A stretch of DNA of 64,000 nt, taken from NCBI GenBank assembly GCA_044229355.1, contig JBGATF010000025.1:33930-97929 (forward strand), read 5' to 3'. Under the pieces are notes generated by a model that did no database searches, was not told the DNA's origin, and saw only the letters and a list, made by a program, of their open reading frames with translations. The stretch comes from Limisphaerales bacterium (lineage in GTDB: Bacteria; Verrucomicrobiota; Verrucomicrobiia; Limisphaerales; JADJPG01). A program made the translations under genes and the position numbers. Positions 25,919-34,617 of the stretch are shown here, one piece after another; position 1 is the first letter of the stretch, and every line of letters begins with the position of its first letter.

Positions 25919-28900
25919 TCACGGCGTCGACCAGACGCGATAAAACCGCTGCGGTTGACCAGTCGCTTCCGGATCAGAGAACGTCAACTCGCCATTGCGG
26001 CTCGCGACCACGTCCACGGCGGTCCAGGTCTTTAGGTCCGATGACGCTTCGACCACGTAACTGGCGTCGTTCCCGACCTGCAGACTGAAGCGGCCGGACG
26101 CATCGCGCCGGATCTGGGCCAGTCGAAGCGCCGGGACGCTTGCTCCCGTGAATTGAGTCAACTGAACCGGAGTGATTTCCAGAAAGCAGATCTTGTTGTT
26201 GCTGGCACCCGTGCCATTGCTCACGGTCAGACGTCCGTCTGTCACGGTGACGGTGTTGGTCCCGGTCATCCATCGGGTGGACGTGGTGGGCGTCCCGGCG
26301 ATGGTCAGCAGACCCTCGACGTTGATTCGATAAACGCTGTCAAATGCCGTGGCGTCGCCGGACACACCCCAGACCCGATACGTGCCGTTCGGCAGGCCAA
26401 TCTCCCACGTCTGGGCACCGCCGGTCCGTTGCATATGAGTCAGCGTGTCGTAACGCTGATCGGGCGAACGGGTCGAGTTTCGATCCCGGGTGGAGGCGGT
26501 GTTGGTCGAGTTCCAGCCGTAGGCGAAGCCATTGCCGCGATTGCCGAAGACCGCCCCGACATCGGCCAGGTAACCGGCGGGCACCGTCGATCCGGAAGGT
26601 TGGAAGTTGATCTTCACCACCGGAGTTGAGGAGGTTACGGCCAGCGAGCCGGCCACATGGGTGATGACATAGTTGGCGTCGGCTGCCCCACTGGCGGTAA
26701 TGGGATAAGTGCCCACCGGGCTGCTCGCGGTCGCGGTGGTGGCCAATTTCACCGGCGCGTCGAGCACGGCTGCAGTGTCACCATTGACAAGCCCCACATA
26801 CGTGGCCGTCAACGCCGGCAAGGCCGCACCGTAAAGCTTCGCCTTGTTTTGCGCCCGGACGGTCAGGGGGGCGCGGAGCACATCGATCGTCACCGAGCCG
26901 GTCACTGCCAGAAAGGTTGCGAGATCGGTCGGGGTAAACACCACCGTCAGCACCCGCCCGGTTCCCGCATTAAGCACTGCACCGGCACCGGGCGTATAAA
27001 CGAACGACCCGGGCGCCGAAGCCGTCGCATTCAGCTGCAGCCCGCTCAATGGCGTGCCATAGGTCACGGCCGCAGGGCGGCTCCAACCGAGAACCGGTGG
27101 CGTCCGCACCGCGTCGCTGTCATCCAGCTGCCGGAGATACGCGCCAAGGTTGGCGAGATCGACGGAAGTCAACGCCACACCGCGGTGGGCCACAATGGCG
27201 TCCTCAACGGTGGCCGCCGAGCCGTCGTGAAGATAAGGGCCCGTGGCGTACACGCCGAGCAAGGTAGGCGTGTCCAGACCGGTCAAGGGACCGCCCAACC
27301 GCCCGCCGCTGCTGGGTTTGATCGTTCCCACGTCGCGGAACACTCCGAGCGCGCTATCCGTAAAGCGCGTCCCGGCGTGGCACTGGGCGCAATTCAATTG
27401 CTGGAAGAGAGAACGTCCCGCCAGCGCCGCTGCCGTGAGAGTGCCGTCGGGATTGCGTTCGGGACTGAATCCGTGAGCGGTCAACGAGCTCACGTAGGCC
27501 GCCAGCGCATCGAGATCACGGCTGAGACCCGCCTTGCGGTCCCCCAGGGCAGTGGCCCGGGTGCCCGCATGGAAATCGGCGTCGTTCATCAGGCCCGTTC
27601 CGCGCGCAAAGTCGCGGATCTGCCCTTCAAAATCCTGCACTTCATCAAAATTGCCGGTCCAATGGAGCGGCCCGTGCGCCGTGCCGCCATGCCCGCGCAG
27701 GGTGATGGTGTTCCGCAAACCTTCGCCGAACTGGGTGAAATCCCAGACGCGCCCGTCCTGGCCGCCATCGTTGTGGCAGCTCGCACAGCTGATGTATTGC
27801 TGGAACGCCACCCGCGTGTCGCGCGTGTCGTAGAACAGTTGCTTGCCGAGCAAAACGTCGGGCGAAAGTTGTTCGGTCGCGACGCAATTCAACGTGACCG
27901 GTGGAGGCGGAGGCGTCCCCGCCCCGGCCGCCAGCGCGCTGACATCGTGGATCGTCACGGTCCGATCCATGAAGTTGTGCACAAACAGCGTCCGTCCATC
28001 CGGCGCGAGGACCAGCCCCTGCGGCGCCCGCCCCGCGTCGAAGCGCAGGATCTCCTGCCCGGCCCATGCGTCCGCCACCGCCACCTCCCGGCTGCCCTCC
28101 AACGCGGTGAACAAAAAGTTGCCCTGCGGATCGAAGGCCGACGCGCTCGCCATGCCCGCGTTGTCGAAATCAACCCGGCGGCCGAGATCCTCCGTCTGCG
28201 TCGCCAGGATCAGCCGCGACGCGATGCTCCGCATGGCCATGTCATGCGTCAGTTCACCGCCGTTGCGGAGACGCCCCCGCTTGATGTTGTCCTGCTTCGA
28301 CGGCACCCAGGCGGAGAGACCGTCCGGAGAAATCGCCGCGGCGCCCAAATAATTGGGAATGCCCTGGGCGGAGTTCGACGTATCCGCCACCTCGCTGTGT
28401 TCCAGGATGCCGGTGGCCAGAAGCGTCATGGCCGTCGCGTCGATCATCAGGACCTCGCCGCCATGCTTCACGCCCGCCACTGTCGTGTCCACGATCGCGG
28501 TGTCTTCGCCCGGCAGACGGGGTGTCACGAATCGCGTGGCCAGCACCCGCGTGCCATCGGCCGTCACGGAGACATGGCGGACGTGCGGGCCGACAGTCGT
28601 GGCGCCGATCACCGCACCGCCGACAGGATTCAGCTTGAGCACCTGGCCGCCATGCTCCAGGGCCACATAGAGGCTCGTCCCGGCGGGATCGAAAACCACG
28701 CCATGCGGTCGCGATCCCCGCGGCAGCGCCACCGTTTGCGCCACGCTCAAGTCGCCGCGCAGCACGGTGAGCGTGGACGATTCCGTGTTCGCAACCCACA
28801 CCCGTCCGTCAACCCCCATTGTCAGAGTGCGCGGCGCCCGGCCAACTTTGACTTCTGCCAGCCTCGCCCGCGTGACCGCATCGAACACCGTCACGCTGTC

Positions 28901-31900
28901 GTTGTCCGGGTTCACCACCCAAAGGCGATCGTTCGCGCCGGTGCGATCTTCATAAACCACGCTTGAGGACTGCGTCGGCCGCGACGCGGTCAAGGGGGCG
29001 TGCACCGCCTGCCGATAGCTGGCGGTGACCGTGCGCCCCGTCTGATCGCGAACGGTCACGGTGATCAAATACCGTCCGGGAGTCGCATACGCATGCGTGA
29101 TGCCGGGAAGGTCGGCGAAGGCGGTGTCAGGTGTGCCATCGCCGAAGCTCCAGGCAAACTGTGGATTCAGCCCGCCGACGGCCCGCGCGGTCAGTGTGAC
29201 GGGAGTGCCTACCGGCACGGCGGCGCCGGAGAGCGCCTGAACCGTGAGCACGTCATCGACCACCCAGGAAAATGTCGCGCTGACGGCTGGAGTGTTGCCA
29301 TCCGTAACGACAATCGTCGGAGAGAACGTGCCGGCTTGATTCGGGACACCTGAGATCAGTCCCGACGAAGGGTTGAGCGAAAGTCCCGGAGGCAGTCCGG
29401 TGGCGCTCCAAGTGAGGAGATCGCCATTGGGATCGGTGGCCGATAGCTGTCGTTGGGCCGCGACCCCGATCACGTTGGTTTGAGGTCCGGGCGAGGCGAA
29501 ACTCGGCGGAGCGGGCAAAGCGAGAGCGTTCACGCTGAGGGTCCAGCTTTCAATATCGTGATTGTTGAATTGGCCGCCGGTCGCTCCAGTAAAACCGAAC
29601 CACGCCTGGCCGCCGACGAGCGCTGGCAGATCCACGGAGAGGGTGATGACCGGAACGGCGGGACGCTGCACGACATTGCTTGCGGCGAGAAAGACCCGGA
29701 GCTGATTGGCCGGGCCGTCGTATTCGACCCACGCGGTTTGGCTGGCGGCGTTCTCCAGGTCCCACGCCGGGGTGTAGGTGGCGAGATGCGTTGCCACGTC
29801 GCCGTTGCTCAGGACGGCGACGTGGTTCGCATTGGCGTCGCCGGTGCCCGCGTAGTTATCGATCTCCACAGCCAGGCTCTGGCTGAGGCCCCCGTAGCCC
29901 AGGCCGCTGCCGCCGACTCCCAACGCATTGGGACCGTTCGCCTGCACACAAAAGGTCAGGCCGTCGGCACCGTCGGCTGTCCCGTGGATCCGGTAAACGA
30001 ACCGCGTGCTGAACGATGTGTTCGGGCCGATCGGCACCGCGTTGGTGATATAGGCCGAACCGGCCTGGTTGGCGGCGTTTGAAGCCAGACGCAAGGCGCC
30101 GGCGATGACCGCAGCCCGCCCGTTGAGACTCAGTCCACTGGTGTTGGCAAAATTCGCGAACGTGCGGGCCAGCGTGGCGGGTTGCACCGACCAGCTCACA
30201 TCCGCGATGTCCGAAGTTCGACCGTCGGTGACCGTGATGCGCGCGTTGAATGTCCCCAGCGCGGTGGGGATTCCGGAGATCCGCCCATCGCTGCCGCCGA
30301 TGGCGAGACCTGGCGGCAGGCCCGTCGCGGACCAGCTCAGGACACTGCCGGCAGGGCCGCTGGCAAACAGAGCCAGAGAGACCGCCTGGCCGAGGTACGA
30401 AGACTGGTTGCCGGGCGGGACGACGTCGACGGCGTTGATGGCGTCCACCAGAATCGTGCGGGAGACCGAGTGCACGCCGGCGGCGTCGAGCGCGAACAGC
30501 ATCCAGTATCCCGGGGTCATCACATTGAGGCTGGCGTGGGCGGTCAATTCGTAGGTGCCGGGAGTGACCTCGGTGAACGGCAGCGAAAGGAACCGCACGT
30601 CGGTGTTCACCGAGTGGGTGATGGCCGACATCTTGATGAAGCTGAACTTTTGCATTCCCGGCGTGGCGGTCACGGTGAACCTCGTGCCCACCCCGATGGC
30701 GGCGGGCGCGCCGGCGATCGACGGGCGGGTCGCCGGCGTCCCGTCGGCGTTGAACAGATTCGGCGGGGTGAACAACTGGACGTCCTGATGGTCAGCTCCG
30801 CCAAGACCGCCCCCGCCGGAAAGAATCCTCCCGTCCGGCAGCAGCAACGCGAGCGAGTGATAGTTGCGCGGCACGGACGCGTCCGCCACCGGCCGCCACA
30901 GTCCGCTGGCCGGGTTCCAAACCTCCGGCGTCAGAATCGATCCCGTGTCGTTGAACTTCAGACCAGACGTGTTGCCGCCCATGACCATGACCTCGCCATT
31001 GGGCAGGATCGCGGCGTTGGCAAACTGACGCGAGAAGGCCATCGGAGTTCGCGAAGTGACGACGGGCGAGCTGCCGCGCACGTCCACGGTGTAGACCAGG
31101 TTCGTGCTCGTGCCGGTGGTGGTGTCATTCACGTTCGCCGTCGTGTTGGCGCCGCCGCCCGCAACCAGAATCCGCCCTTCGTCGTACATCACCCACGATC
31201 CTTCCTTCGGATAGTGCGTGCCCGGAACCGTCGTGCCCGCCGCACTGAGCGTGCCACTGCCTTCCGGCGAAACCCAATGCATCGTGTCCGTCGGCCCGAA
31301 ATGAATAAGCCGCCCATCCGGGGCGAGCGAGAGGAACGGATGCCAGATGTTGATGTAGCCCGGCTCGGCCGTGACGGTGTTCCAATCAATCCCCGTCAGG
31401 CGGCTCCAGCCGACCGCAGAATCCCAACGCTCCGCCGTGCCGGATCCGCCGCTGCCGCTGACCGTCCAAACCCGTCCGCTCGGAAGAGCCACGCTGGTGT
31501 TGTACCAGCGCGGATCGTTCATGTCCGGAGTGCGCGTCCACGTGTTGACCCGCCAGTCAAAAAGACTCGCACGCACCGTCGTGTTGCGCCCCCCGTTGAC
31601 CAGCACCCGCCCGTCCGGCAACATCACCAGCGCGCCGCAAAACATGTCGTGCGACGGATGATTGAACTCCCGGAACTCGCCCGTGGCCGGATTCCAGGTC
31701 GCGGCAAAGGTGAACTCCGGCCCCGCCGGAAACGTCGTTCGCTGGTTGGAGGCAAAGGTCAGAATTCGGCCATCCGGCAAATTGGCGGCGGAGACCGGAA
31801 TGTGGGGCGTCCACGGAATGATCGAACTCCACTCGCCGCGCGTGCTGCGCAGGTTCGGCGGCGTGCCGGCGGGCGCGAAGAAGACCTCCTCCTGCGGCAA

Positions 31901-32116
31901 TAGCGCCGCCACCTCGGCCGCAAATGTGTCCCCGGCCACATGCGGATCCACGTCCGCGCGCACGGACGGCTGCGCCGTCACGCCCCACAGCGCGCCGCCT
32001 AACAGCGCCGCCGCCACCGCCCGCGCCCAGCCGGCGGCGTTGCGCAGGCCAGGCCTGAGGTTCAGCGACGCGTCCCTGCCTCCGGAGTGCAGGCGTCCTC
32101 GCCTGCAGAAACTCAA
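25919..32116 (-). CDS. Giant secreted mosaic protein: galactose-oxidase-type copper radical oxidase + lectin/Ig/PKD/YVTN-propeller modules + di-heme cytochrome c peroxidase-like domain + MBG + malectin-like domain
   Basis: ORF 25919..32449. The likely start is the in-frame TTG at 32116, because 32117-32315 is occupied by intergenic repeats; the exact start is uncertain. Signal peptide AVAAALLGGALWGVTAQPSVRA. Approximate domain map in nt: GAO+DUF1929-like 30455-31867 (HDMFCGAL, NYHSLALLLPDGRILSGGGG, ITHSVNTD, PGYWMLF); legume-lectin-like 29534-30166; PKD 29000-29248; YVTN propeller 27935-28957; CCP-like 27110-27877 (CASCH 27773-27787, CAQCH 27377-27391); MBG 26630-27097; malectin-like 26165-26623. 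Confidence 0.85.
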   Translation of the reverse strand: MSFCRRGRLHSGGRDASLNLRPGLRNAAGWARAVAAALLGGALWGVTAQPSVRADVDPHVAGDTFAAEVAALLPQEEVFFAPAGTPPNLRSTRGEWSSIIPWTPHIPVSAANLPDGRILTFASNQRTTFPAGPEFTFAATWNPATGEFREFNHPSHDMFCGALVMLPDGRVLVNGGRNTTVRASLFDWRVNTWTRTPDMNDPRWYNTSVALPSGRVWTVSGSGGSGTAERWDSAVGWSRLTGIDWNTVTAEPGYINIWHPFLSLAPDGRLIHFGPTDTMHWVSPEGSGTLSAAGTTVPGTHYPKEGSWVMYDEGRILVAGGGANTTANVNDTTTGTSTNLVYTVDVRGSSPVVTSRTPMAFSRQFANAAILPNGEVMVMGGNTSGLKFNDTGSILTPEVWNPASGLWRPVADASVPRNYHSLALLLPDGRILSGGGGLGGADHQDVQLFTPPNLFNADGTPATRPSIAGAPAAIGVGTRFTVTATPGMQKFSFIKMSAITHSVNTDVRFLSLPFTEVTPGTYELTAHASLNVMTPGYWMLFALDAAGVHSVSRTILVDAINAVDVVPPGNQSSYLGQAVSLALFASGPAGSVLSWSATGLPPGLAIGGSDGRISGIPTALGTFNARITVTDGRTSDIADVSWSVQPATLARTFANFANTSGLSLNGRAAVIAGALRLASNAANQAGSAYITNAVPIGPNTSFSTRFVYRIHGTADGADGLTFCVQANGPNALGVGGSGLGYGGLSQSLAVEIDNYAGTGDANANHVAVLSNGDVATHLATYTPAWDLENAASQTAWVEYDGPANQLRVFLAASNVVQRPAVPVITLSVDLPALVGGQAWFGFTGATGGQFNNHDIESWTLSVNALALPAPPSFASPGPQTNVIGVAAQRQLSATDPNGDLLTWSATGLPPGLSLNPSSGLISGVPNQAGTFSPTIVVTDGNTPAVSATFSWVVDDVLTVQALSGAAVPVGTPVTLTARAVGGLNPQFAWSFGDGTPDTAFADLPGITHAYATPGRYLITVTVRDQTGRTVTASYRQAVHAPLTASRPTQSSSVVYEDRTGANDRLWVVNPDNDSVTVFDAVTRARLAEVKVGRAPRTLTMGVDGRVWVANTESSTLTVLRGDLSVAQTVALPRGSRPHGVVFDPAGTSLYVALEHGGQVLKLNPVGGAVIGATTVGPHVRHVSVTADGTRVLATRFVTPRLPGEDTAIVDTTVAGVKHGGEVLMIDATAMTLLATGILEHSEVADTSNSAQGIPNYLGAAAISPDGLSAWVPSKQDNIKRGRLRNGGELTHDMAMRSIASRLILATQTEDLGRRVDFDNAGMASASAFDPQGNFLFTALEGSREVAVADAWAGQEILRFDAGRAPQGLVLAPDGRTLFVHNFMDRTVTIHDVSALAAGAGTPPPPPVTLNCVATEQLSPDVLLGKQLFYDTRDTRVAFQQYISCASCHNDGGQDGRVWDFTQFGEGLRNTITLRGHGGTAHGPLHWTGNFDEVQDFEGQIRDFARGTGLMNDADFHAGTRATALGDRKAGLSRDLDALAAYVSSLTAHGFSPERNPDGTLTAAALAGRSLFQQLNCAQCHAGTRFTDSALGVFRDVGTIKPSSGGRLGGPLTGLDTPTLLGVYATGPYLHDGSAATVEDAIVAHRGVALTSVDLANLGAYLRQLDDSDAVRTPPVLGWSRPAAVTYGTPLSGLQLNATASAPGSFVYTPGAGAVLNAGTGRVLTVVFTPTDLATFLAVTGSVTIDVLRAPLTVRAQNKAKLYGAALPALTATYVGLVNGDTAAVLDAPVKLATTATASSPVGTYPITASGAADANYVITHVAGSLAVTSSTPVVKINFQPSGSTVPAGYLADVGAVFGNRGNGFAYGWNSTNTASTRDRNSTRSPDQRYDTLTHMQRTGGAQTWEIGLPNGTYRVWGVSGDATAFDSVYRINVEGLLTIAGTPTTSTRWMTGTNTVTVTDGRLTVSNGTGASNNKICFLEITPVQLTQFTGASVPALRLAQIRRDASGRFSLQVGNDASYVVEASSDLKTWTAVDVVASRNGELTFSDPEATGQPQRFYRVWSTP

Positions 32117-32167
32117 GGACGACTGAAGGGCTTGGATGCATCCCAACCGGTGGAAAAATCCATCTTC

Positions 32168-32194
32168 CTGCGCCCGAGGACGGGCGCACCCCGG
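32168..32194 (+). repeat. 27-nt hairpin repeat (copy 1) ctgcgcccgaggacgggcgcaccccgg
   Basis: Perfect reverse-complement match to 34296..34322. Internal stem gcgcccg/cgggcgc. Confidence 0.9.
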
Positions 32195-32198
32195 GACC

Positions 32199-32298
32199 GG
32201 TAGGGCTGGCGCTCCCGCCTTCGCCCGGGGCTGCGGCGGACCGAAGCCGCCGCCAGCCGGCTGTCCAGATTGCGGCGCGTTGCGCAGAGGGCGCGGTG
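32199..32298. repeat. ~100-bp GC-rich MITE/REP-like element (copy E3, diverged)
   Basis: ggtagggctggcgctcccgccttcgcccggggctgcggcggaccgaagccgccgcc... aligns with 13792..13850 and with the reverse complement of 34437..34494. Confidence 0.7.
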
Positions 32299-32315: not shown

Positions 32316-34211
32316 TCAGGGTGAGGTTGAATCATGGGGTGATGAAGGATTGAGATTGGTGCGGACCAGAAAAGCGTCCCGGGATGAGGCCGGGGCGGCC
32401 GCCTTCGTGGCGACGAACTTGTCGTCGGTGAGTGTCTTGAGAAAAGCAACCAACGCCGCCTTGTCGTCGGCGCTCAACCCGAGTCCGGCCACGGGATGCT
32501 TCGCCAGGTTCGGATCAAGCGTCGACGTCCGATGCAACGGACCATTGTAATGCTCGACCACATCTTCGAGCGTGGCGAACCGTCCATCGTGCATGTAGGG
32601 CCCCGTCAGCGCCACATTTCGCAGGGACGGCACCTTGAACTTGCCGCGATCGGATTCCAGACCGGTGACGGCCATTCGCCCGACGTCGCCGTCGTGTTCG
32701 GGCAGGCCGTTGTTGAGAAACTGCTGGTTGCTGAACAAATTGCCGCCGTGGCAGTGAAAGCAGTCTGCCCCGCGCAGGCCTCGCGCCGGATCATGCTCCG
32801 TGACGAACAGCTGCAAGCCGCGTTGTTCCTGCGGGCTCAGCGTCGTCAATTTTCGCGCCGCGCGATCGAATTTCGATTCCTGCGAAATCAAGGTGAGGAG
32901 GAATTGCTCCAGTGCGCGGGCGATTCGCTCCGAAGTCACGCCGGGGCTGCCAAACACGGCGTGGAATCGATCGGCATAAGAACGGTCGGCCTGGAGCTTG
33001 GCCACCGCGCGATCCAGGGATTCGTTCATCTCCTTCGCATCCTGGATGGGCAGCAACACCTGCTCCCGCAGCGATCGGGCACGGCCGTCCCAGAAAAATT
33101 CCCGGGCCCAGGCCAGGTTGGCCAGGGCCATCGCATTCCGCCGCCCGGGTTGTCCGCTCTCCCCCACACTTTGACGCCGGCCGTCCGAGAATGCGCGCGC
33201 ACGGTCGTGACACGACGTACACGCCTGCCGACCGTTGCGGGATAGTTTCGGCTCTTCGAAAAGCCGCCGGCCAAGCTCCACGCCTTCGACGGTCAGCGGG
33301 TTGTCCGCCGGCAGGGTCACTTGGGGCAGTCGCTCCGAGATCGCCAAAGGATAGGGCGCGCCGTTGCGAGAGGCCGACGGGCCTTTCCCTTTCCCATCGA
33401 GGGCCGCCAGAGGGACCTTTTGATAGGTGTCGGCCTGCACGTTGCGGACCCGAAAGGCGCGACTCACCCGCACCTTCATCGTCACCGCGAGTGGATCTCC
33501 GGCCCGGGAATGCGTTGCGTTGGCGGTGCCCACCACCGCGCCATCGTCGAGAATTGCAGCGAGATCCATCCCGAGGCGCACATGAGCCGGCCGCCGACCG
33601 GAAAACTGGACCGGCAACTCAACCGTCATGGCGGGCGTCGGCCCCGCAAGGTGATAGGAAAAGCCCGCCAGCAGGTTTGAACCGTAATGACCTTCCATGG
33701 CCAGGAAGACATATCCGGATCGCCACCCCCAATGCAGACCGCACACATCCGGATGCAGCGGATGCTCCGCCGGCCAGGCCTGCGGATCCAGCGCGTCCGT
33801 CGCGGCATCCAGCCCGACTCGAAATCGAATGGCGCGAATGTCCTCCGCCGGGACGCCATCTGCCATCGCAGACCATCGGCCGAGGTCCGCCCGGAAAAGT
33901 GCGAACCAGTCCTTCGCTTCGATCCACTGACCGTTCGTCCGTTGCAGAGCCAGCCCCGAAAGCAACCCGTCGATTCGGCTGAGTGACATCGGCGCCCCCT
34001 TCGCCCCAATCACTTGTTGATTTAGCTCCAGGCGTCGGCCGTTCCATTCAGGCTCAATCTCAATCTGCAGCTTCTCCGCCACCGCCAACCGGGGAAGCCA
34101 CACCAGGCAAAGAAATAGAAATGGCCAGGACGGCAGGAAATCCCGCGCGTCTGGCCATCCTGGCGAGGTTATACAATCCTTGTCGGTCACGGAGCAGCAA
34201 GCGTGTATCAC
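32316..34211 (-). CDS. Fusion protein: N-terminal MbnP-like domain + C-terminal di-heme cytochrome c peroxidase/MauG-family (MbnH-like) domain
   Basis: GTG start at 34211 (exact start uncertain). Hydrophobic leader WPFLFLCLVWLPRLAVA. N-domain motif HPLHPDVCGLHWGWRSGYVFLAMEGHY (about 33417-34079). CCP domain with CTSCH (33207-33221) and CFHCH (32748-32762), plus KVPSLRNVALTGPYMHDGRFATLEDVV. Confidence 0.8.
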   Translation of the reverse strand: MIHACCSVTDKDCITSPGWPDARDFLPSWPFLFLCLVWLPRLAVAEKLQIEIEPEWNGRRLELNQQVIGAKGAPMSLSRIDGLLSGLALQRTNGQWIEAKDWFALFRADLGRWSAMADGVPAEDIRAIRFRVGLDAATDALDPQAWPAEHPLHPDVCGLHWGWRSGYVFLAMEGHYGSNLLAGFSYHLAGPTPAMTVELPVQFSGRRPAHVRLGMDLAAILDDGAVVGTANATHSRAGDPLAVTMKVRVSRAFRVRNVQADTYQKVPLAALDGKGKGPSASRNGAPYPLAISERLPQVTLPADNPLTVEGVELGRRLFEEPKLSRNGRQACTSCHDRARAFSDGRRQSVGESGQPGRRNAMALANLAWAREFFWDGRARSLREQVLLPIQDAKEMNESLDRAVAKLQADRSYADRFHAVFGSPGVTSERIARALEQFLLTLISQESKFDRAARKLTTLSPQEQRGLQLFVTEHDPARGLRGADCFHCHGGNLFSNQQFLNNGLPEHDGDVGRMAVTGLESDRGKFKVPSLRNVALTGPYMHDGRFATLEDVVEHYNGPLHRTSTLDPNLAKHPVAGLGLSADDKAALVAFLKTLTDDKFVATKAAAPASSRDAFLVRTNLNPSSPHDSTSP

Positions 34212-34295: not shown

Positions 34296-34322
34296 CCGGG
34301 GTGCGCCCGTCCTCGGGCGCAG
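34296..34322 (-). repeat. 27-nt hairpin repeat (copy 2, inverted)
   Basis: ccggggtgcgcccgtcctcgggcgcag is the exact reverse complement of 32168..32194. Confidence 0.9.
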
Positions 34323-34379
34323 AAAGGTGAGAATTTTCCAAAGCTCAGAATCCTCCAGCCTCTCAGTCGTTCTTGAAAA

Positions 34380-34494
34380 GGTAGGGCGCGCTCTCCGCAG
34401 CGCGCCGCCGGTGCGGACCGCCGTGCGAACAACCGGCTGGCGGCGGCTTCGGTCCGCCGTAGCCCCGAGCGAAGGCGGGAGCGCCAGCCCCACC
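34380..34494. repeat. ~115-bp GC-rich MITE/REP-like element (copy E2)
   Basis: Termini ggtagggcgcgctctccgc and (reverse complement) ggtggggctggcgctcccgc form imperfect terminal inverted repeats. Hairpin ggcgcgct-ctccgc-agcgcgcc. Full-length match to 13792..13906 in the opposite orientation. Confidence 0.8.
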
Positions 34495-34617
34495 GGGTTG
34501 CCCGACAGGCGTCGTGACGAGCCACGTTCAGCGCTGTCGGATCCAGACGTCCCACGTTGGGATCCTGGGTTCTGGATTCTGGAGCTTGGATCGGGGTCTG
34601 AGCGTCGACATCCTGTT

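Follow-up and report, generated by a model that had tools for sequence, protein, structure and literature searches.

We analysed a stretch of 64,000 nucleotides from a Limisphaerales bacterium (GenBank assembly GCA_044229355.1, contig JBGATF010000025.1; the whole of it is called the window below) and found that one of its genes encodes a single polypeptide in which an MbnP-like domain is followed by an MbnH-like di-heme domain. Comparison with relatives shows that this MbnP-like/MauG-type architecture is fixed across a large verrucomicrobial family. The gene stands directly upstream of the gene of a giant copper radical oxidase. Our preferred reading, to which we give a probability of around 45%, is that the fusion would act as a copper-supplying accessory of this adjacent oxidase, by means of a kynurenine site made by its own hemes.

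MbnH and MbnP are normally separate proteins, and the pair of Methylosinus trichosporium OB3b (PDB 6E1C and 7L6G; TIGR04039 and TIGR04052) is the reference for what follows. The features of the fusion are given below. Residue numbers count from position 34211, where the longest open reading frame (ORF) of the gene begins (32316-34211, reverse strand, 631 residues), and invariance is counted over 76 fused relatives.

32316..34190, reverse strand: the MbnP-like/MbnH-like fusion gene, 624 aa from the likely start GTG 34190, with both Pfam domains
34077..34190, reverse strand: probable Sec signal peptide, as read from the sequence, with a hydrophobic core and ...LAVA, then EK
33426..34076, reverse strand: MbnP-like beta-sandwich domain of a cysteine-free branch (residues 46-262; PF20243, hhalign and fold search)
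33723..33737, reverse strand: LHWGW, the WxW motif, placed by hhalign columns; L159, H160, W161 and W163 are invariant (76/76)
33651..33653, reverse strand: His187, counterpart of the invariant ..VHLGS.. His of classical MbnPs and a candidate metal ligand
33504..33515, reverse strand: THSR motif, with His234 opposite the Met of the classical GCMS and Thr233 opposite one of the four Cys
33312..33425, reverse strand: linker between the two domains (residues 263-300), part of it with low predicted order, and poorly conserved in the alignment
32403..33311, reverse strand: MbnH/MauG-type di-heme domain (residues 301-603; PF03150, TIGR04039, PDB match 6e1c)
33207..33221, reverse strand: first heme-binding motif, CTSCH (residue 331), invariant (76/76)
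32748..32762, reverse strand: second heme-binding motif, CFHCH (residue 484), invariant (76/76)
32547..32549, reverse strand: Tyr555, opposite a Tyr of 6e1c and a Met of 1iqc, invariant (76/76)

The preliminary description of this DNA had read both domains in one polypeptide from the sequence alone, and Pfam, NCBIfam, PDB, hhalign and the fold search now agree on it. A database search gave both Pfam domains on at least 230 proteins, 530-690 aa long and chiefly from Verrucomicrobiota. The short matches were mainly fragments, and a few entries were split or truncated (P0127, L009 and L019). Furthermore, a pattern scan of the GTDB species genomes gave 261 loci, 80 of which were retrieved for analysis. 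The carriers include a cultured bacterium, Brevifollis gellanilyticus NBRC 108608 (locus L024). The fusion was in frame in all the loci with a complete 3' end (76/76), and two CXXCH motifs were present in 74 of these 76. Contigs of two independent sludge metagenomes also match the fusion gene with zero differences, and one of these contigs, of 718 nt, spans positions 33297-34014, including the linker and the domain junction. The preliminary description had kept a frameshift or an assembly artefact in view; with all complete relatives in frame and the junction covered independently, the fusion is genuine.

The architecture itself is not new, as public annotation already displays both domains on these proteins and some NCBI names read 'MbnP family protein', these names being automatic only. 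Homologues named 'MbnP family protein' or 'cytochrome c peroxidase' (e.g. P0052, P0097 and P0109) have 42-59% identity to the N-domain. In our literature search, outside which the primary MbnP/MbnH papers lay, we found no paper discussing the fused form or the oxidase link.

Regarding the beginning of the gene, its true start is likely GTG 34190 and not 34211, because the relatives open with MTDKDR... and the ORF reads here (V)TDKDC..., giving an N-terminus MTDKDC.... The hydrophobic stretch ending in LAVA, followed by EK, comes after this proposed N-terminus, and the relatives have hydrophobic N-termini at the equivalent alignment position. The mature protein would begin near residue 46. The public gene call (P0003, 595 aa) begins at an internal GTG at 34103, and the signal peptide is thereby lost; since the homologue N-termini favour GTG 34190, this stored call starts too late. 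The AlphaFold2 model of the full-length fusion is a two-domain chain with a predicted local distance difference test (pLDDT) of 85 and a predicted template-modelling score (pTM) of 0.83. Values of pLDDT below 50 are limited to model residues 224-236 (13 linker residues). This model is suggestive of a defined docking of one domain against the other.

Profile and fold comparisons indicate that the N-domain is a divergent MbnP branch without the four Cys. With the Pfam MbnP model PF20243, whose cut-off is 27 bits, residues 46-224 scored 81.9 bits (E 7.5e-23), and the match took in profile positions 2-179 of 189. A PDB search with the single N-domain sequence gave no match, and a 23-sequence profile of the domain reached 7l6g at E 0.1 only. 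The classical reference alignment comprised 18 four-Cys MbnPs, seeded from a 77-residue piece of 7l6g, and hhalign matched the N-domain profile to it over 209 columns with a probability of 98% (E 2.5e-13). Furthermore, the AlphaFold2 model of the N-domain alone (pLDDT 81, pTM 0.77) gave six significant PDB matches in Foldseek, all of them 7L6G chains (E 2e-9 to 3e-8, template-modelling scores 0.52-0.56). As hhalign reaches 98% and Foldseek matches solely 7L6G, the assignment to the MbnP fold is sound. The lack of the four-Cys signature, already seen in the preliminary description, was also found here: the N-domain has one Cys, which is non-conserved, and no Cys in the invariant Cys columns of the classical MbnPs. 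This cysteine-free branch, with [L/M]-H-W-x-W, is large, since a search with the N-domain reached 1268 clusters (50% identity) at E <1e-3, and it has both stand-alone (~250 aa) and fused (~600 aa) members.

For the C-terminal half, the CCP_MauG model PF03150 (cytochrome c peroxidase, CCP) matched at E 1.4e-53 (182 bits). The top NCBIfam model for the di-heme domain was TIGR04039, the MbnH family (241.6 bits), with MauG second, and the best PDB match was 6e1c (E 2e-46), which we take to be the MbnH of M. trichosporium OB3b. CTSCH and CFHCH, which had been named for this CCP/MauG domain beforehand, are indeed there, at residues 331 and 484. Tyr555 sits 14 residues past the conserved His of a PYMHDG motif, and the Met opposite it in the Nitrosomonas peroxidase 1iqc occupies the axial-ligand position. 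Tyr for Met as axial heme ligand characterises the MauG/MbnH enzymes, which oxidise proteins, whereas the peroxide-detoxifying peroxidases use His/Met.

The motif quoted in the preliminary description, HPLHPDVCGLHWGWRSGYVFLAMEGHY, corresponds to residues 150-176 (window 33684-33764). In hhalign W161 and W163 line up with the WxW of the classical MbnPs. We take W161 to be the counterpart of the first WxW Trp, the kynurenine precursor. Met is invariant at just two positions of the mature classical MbnPs (M-x-W-x-W and G-C-M-S); invariant His likewise number two (N-H-S and V-H-L-G-S). Of these His, that of V-H-L-G-S persists in the fusion as His187, and that of N-H-S has no aligned His there. Kyn174 of MbnP comes from a Trp of the WxW motif, and the copper ligands of MbnP are His, Met, water and kynurenine (PMC11951088). 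One of the two invariant classical Met must be the Cu(I) ligand. Besides L159, H160, W161 and W163, the residues S185, H187, T233, H234, S235, R236 and D239 are invariant in the 76/76 fused relatives. Since the three MbnP segments (WxW, H-L-G and the C-M-S region) are conserved together with His, a retained site is favoured over a mere adaptor. The N-domain thus keeps these three segments, with disulfides absent and a set of ligands that is harder and rich in His.

A co-occurrence of the fusion with galactose-oxidase-like genes had been put forward as a check, and it turned out to be strong. Among the 66 related loci having at least 700 bp downstream, the oxidase gene, a giant ORF of ~2000-3000 aa, was immediately downstream on the same strand in 51. 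In most loci the distance from the fusion stop to the start of the oxidase match was 72-263 nt, and because these gaps are so short many of the gene pairs must abut or overlap. The other 15 loci all fall within one Prosthecobacter clade of the fusion tree, where they are intermixed with linked loci; they have the same flanking genes, with the giant gene cleanly gone between them. The oxidase was present elsewhere in all the genomes of this clade that were tested (5/5), with no fusion gene within 1.5 kb upstream of it. This implies, from the genomes compared, that the oxidase was repeatedly relocated or lost in the clade, with ~7 changes on the tree. The gene order in this clade is a 263-aa PEP-CTERM protein, the fusion, the giant oxidase where present and a 272-aa gene (e.g. 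L037:8884-13238 vs L039:8150-20183).

The oxidase of the window has the following features.

25919..32116, reverse strand: the partner gene, downstream of the fusion, encoding a secreted mosaic protein of 2065 aa; its start is probably TTG 32116
30446..31867, reverse strand: galactose-oxidase-like catalytic domain of the partner (E 1.4e-93 to 9g8h)

The preliminary description had called the next gene on the same strand a copper-dependent radical oxidase, and this was borne out by the match to 9g8h and by the catalytic residues. Against 1gof, the domain, a Kelch propeller, gave E 1e-68, with the Cys of the Tyr-Cys link, the equatorial Tyr, the axial Tyr-His and the second His present at the 1gof-numbered catalytic positions. 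In 43 sequences the motifs HDMFC, RWY and NYH were invariant and THSVNTD nearly so. The oxidase needs copper, because the domain retains all the copper and Tyr-Cys residues. The GlxA equivalog cut-off was not reached by it (147 against 800). The whole protein is ordered as galactose-oxidase-type domain, legume-lectin, immunoglobulin (Ig)/PKD, YVTN beta-propeller, di-heme CCP-like module, MBG and a C-terminal module. Its own beta-propeller and di-heme CCP-like module are at 27050-29002 (reverse strand), with CASCH and CAQCH; the di-heme module resembles hydrazine synthase beta/gamma and is conserved among relatives (56-75% identity) as much as the oxidase domain. A predicted complex of the fusion with the oxidase propeller had a score of 0.00, which counts neither way.

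The copper-supplying role can be pictured as a sequence of steps. The exported single chain holds both the enzyme and the presumed substrate of the MbnH/MbnP pair. Its di-heme domain, activated by H2O2, would oxidise Trp161 of its own or of a neighbouring molecule to kynurenine, and a metal site could then form from Kyn161, His187, His234 and perhaps His160. The loaded fusion would serve the neighbouring oxidase in the periplasm, most likely via copper supply, and the heme domain might draw its oxidant naturally from the H2O2 made by this oxidase. In the known system, copper binding by MbnP requires the MbnH-dependent conversion of Trp to kynurenine (PMC11951088), and in mbnP/mbnH deletions the copper-bound methanobactin stays in the medium (PMC13729199). 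A role in copper acquisition or delivery, as was suggested from the start, is thus far a plausible candidate.

Nevertheless, several results weigh against this role. Both halves of the protein miss the equivalog level: the di-heme domain stayed below the cut-off of TIGR04039 (241.6 against 362.85), with the MauG model likewise below its own, and the N-domain failed the MbnP equivalog TIGR04052 (25.9 against 140 bits), with only residues 118-188 aligning. The membership of the N-domain in the MbnP family, as proposed earlier, stands therefore with the Pfam model and falls with the equivalog. The expected conservation of the modified Trp and the copper ligands was likewise found in part. The WxW Trps are invariant (76/76) and His187 is kept, but both classical Met are replaced, the first by the invariant Leu159 and the second by the invariant His234 (hhalign). 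Because both Met are replaced and the four Cys are gone, an MbnP-type Cu(I) site cannot be assumed, and any metal site here should differ in its chemistry from that of MbnP. Furthermore, it is wasteful to keep a single-turnover enzyme permanently fused to the protein it modifies, a hint that the hemes may go on working. Copper-type regulation was considered for the downstream histidine kinase/response regulator and was rejected, as the best assignments were PhoR/WalK/OmpR-like and under the heavy-metal subfamily cut-offs. The last of these points comes from a phylum-wide check on an even sample of 300 genomes, in which a more distant fusion (N-domain identity 31-33%) turned up in 8 more genomes, none of which had the oxidase. 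The oxidase link is therefore branch-specific. As the distant fusions pair with a YHYH-sulfatase and the oxidase was not found there, supplying a radical oxidase with copper cannot be what the family does in general.

Six of these distant loci were retrieved, and the neighbours of the fusion were a YHYH-sulfatase (4), a YHYH-Ig protein (1) and an unrelated autotransporter-like protein (1). The loci with YHYH-sulfatase or YHYH-Ig neighbours of ~1100 aa (L091:4293-7403, L094:9106-12489, L095:9456-12827, L096:5212-8278 and L093:4663-7281) belong to small verrucomicrobial genomes, and the pairing recurs among them. Actually, the source genome of the window has itself two fusion paralogues and only one oxidase. 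The second paralogue, with a best identity to the relatives of ~54%, is on contig 24 (L001:23-3339), directly after a 455-aa YHYH protein (PF14240, E 1.4e-31). A three-His metal site has been predicted for the YHYH domains (preprint 10.64898/2026.10.18.759936). The genomic neighbourhoods show each fusion paralogue tied to one secreted putative metalloenzyme, and since the two paralogues stand beside different putative metalloproteins, the oxidase and the YHYH protein, this fits a partner-specific accessory. It is more doubtful that the fusions form a general partner-specific maturation system for secreted verrucomicrobial metalloenzymes, in which the kynurenine-His2 copper site of each paralogue, with a chemistry like that of MopE/CorA on the fold of MbnP, would feed metal or oxidising equivalents to one client, be it the giant oxidase or a YHYH protein, often sulfatase-fused.

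Partner specificity and permanent fusion are matched about as well by two other readings, in which the fusion would be either a maturase or a redox/peroxide enzyme. The di-heme domain might oxidise, as a MauG-like maturase, a residue of the neighbouring secreted enzyme, which would be the oxidase here and a YHYH/sulfatase protein elsewhere. The MbnP-like domain would then be a docking module, or an electron/hole relay through the conserved Trps, with no copper site. MauG does act on a separate protein by Trp-mediated hole hopping (PMC11951088). Furthermore, the MauG-type Tyr ligand is invariant, the MbnP Met ligand is lost, and each paralogue or branch has a different neighbour, as a partner-specific modifying enzyme should. 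We consider this nonetheless unlikely, because the WxW, H-L-G and C-M-S segments are kept with ligand-type His, which favours a retained site, and because the Tyr-Cys cofactor of galactose oxidase, as a matter of general knowledge, forms by itself with copper and oxygen, so a maturase is unneeded for it. In the redox/peroxide reading, the fusion would work as an enzyme in its own right, its hemes turning over continuously and, for instance, consuming the H2O2 that the oxidase generates. Alternatively, the hemes would exchange electrons with a metal centre of the MbnP-like domain, which would make the fusion a heme-copper (per)oxidase or reductase and no chaperone. The permanent covalent link and the confident docking (pTM 0.83) suit such an ongoing catalysis better than a single turnover. 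However, the giant oxidase already has its own di-heme peroxidase-like module, the His/Tyr ligation is typical of the protein-oxidising MauG/MbnH and not of the His/Met peroxidases, and there is no obvious peroxide source for the YHYH-linked members, so that we find this reading quite unlikely.

That the fusion arose artefactually, by a frameshift or misassembly, or is a cassette mobilised of late between inverted repeats has practically no probability in our eyes, even if inverted repeat copies do flank the fusion gene and a few split or truncated entries exist (P0127, L009 and L019). The 76/76 complete relatives across Verrucomicrobiota are in the same frame, at least 230 two-domain proteins are known, and the independent metagenome contig crosses the junction without differences. 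In addition, the order of fusion and then oxidase is kept in genomes where the repeat was not looked for.

Among the known systems, MbnP/MbnH of M. trichosporium OB3b is like the fusion in the two folds and their pairing, the WxW, one invariant His, the His/Tyr heme ligation, the extracytoplasmic protein and the copper-related genomic context. On the other hand, the fusion is one chain, lacks the four Cys, has Leu159 and His234 for the Met and shares ~15% identity with MbnP. Its locus is without methanobactin or TonB-receptor genes nearby, the partner being a giant copper radical oxidase. In MopE/SACCP of Methylococcus capsulatus and CorA/CorB of Methylomicrobium album BG8, a copper protein of the surface or periplasm has a site of kynurenine, two His and water, and its gene stands beside that of a di-heme MauG-like peroxidase (PMC3912023; PMC11951088). 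By composition, the predicted set of Kyn161, His187 and His234 would resemble that site more than the Cu(I) site of MbnP with its His, Met and kynurenine. However, the fold of MopE/CorA differs according to reviews (PMC11951088), and the genes are separate and unfused.

The C-domain is also homologous (E ~1e-30) to MauG in complex with pre-methylamine dehydrogenase of Paracoccus denitrificans (3L4M). It has the same Tyr axial ligand, and MauG oxidises Trp residues of another protein by long-range hole hopping. Nevertheless, the product of MauG is tryptophan tryptophylquinone, formed within a separate substrate, and among the ORFs scanned none resembled the methylamine dehydrogenase subunits. 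The maturation of GlxA in Streptomyces lividans, a secreted radical copper oxidase that needs the Sco/ECuC copper chaperones and the heme peroxidase DtpA, is functionally analogous to the accessory role proposed for the fusion. However, the helpers of GlxA are unrelated (thioredoxin-fold Sco and a DyP-type peroxidase) and unfused, and the host is Gram-positive.

The sole chemistry known for MbnP/MbnH pairs is the kynurenine made by the di-heme enzyme that enables copper binding. A covalent fusion of enzyme and substrate is a natural 1:1 single-protein system for the kynurenine-forming reaction, and its altered ligands (His for Met, no disulfides) probe which features of the site are essential. 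Furthermore, the oxidase in fixed pairing with the fusion both requires copper and produces H2O2, and is thereby a specific client on which the idea can be tested. If the copper-supplying role were true, kynurenine-type copper proteins would for the first time be linked to cuproenzyme maturation in Gram-negative bacteria. The YHYH-linked sister branch carries the question into an uncharacterised protein family, and if a general maturation system existed, the YHYH proteins would be a new class of copper enzymes.

Besides the oxidase, the fusion gene is flanked upstream by a divergent T2SS-F gene, and further downstream lie a Calx-beta protein, an unassigned ORF and the two-component system, which is of a generic kind. 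Two copies of a repeat were also found around the fusion gene.

32161..32275, no strand assigned: copy of a repeat resembling repetitive extragenic palindromes or miniature inverted-repeat transposable elements, with inverted repeats, in the 199-nt spacer between fusion and oxidase
34296..34496, no strand assigned: the repeat again, in the opposite orientation and on the upstream side of the fusion; its arms are 79 nt long (89% complementary) and 34 nt long (94%)

This flanking repeat is GC-rich and has an internal hairpin. A composite transposon or cassette between the two copies was rejected, as there are repeat copies elsewhere in the window and the synteny is kept across genera. In other sludge metagenomes contigs pile on 32136-32219 at 5-10x the neighbouring depth, which fits a multicopy repeat. 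A sludge metatranscriptome (run X19) gave one exact contig of 201 nt (31918-32118) from the 5' end of the oxidase only, which may be DNA carry-over; it stops 2 nt past the proposed TTG start, and is too little for a call on expression or on a transcript end.

The source genome is that of a verrucomicrobium of ~9.9 Mb with 65% G+C, whose nearest relatives are metagenome genomes of Limisphaerales/Pedosphaera type, and the organism was detected in bioreactor and activated-sludge metagenomes. Some contigs bearing the operon are in bins titled 'uncultured Bifidobacterium sp.' (L004, L006 and L013), and another is in a 'Fimbriimonadales' bin (L005). These titles clash with the verrucomicrobial gene content, and the bins are probably mislabelled or contaminated.

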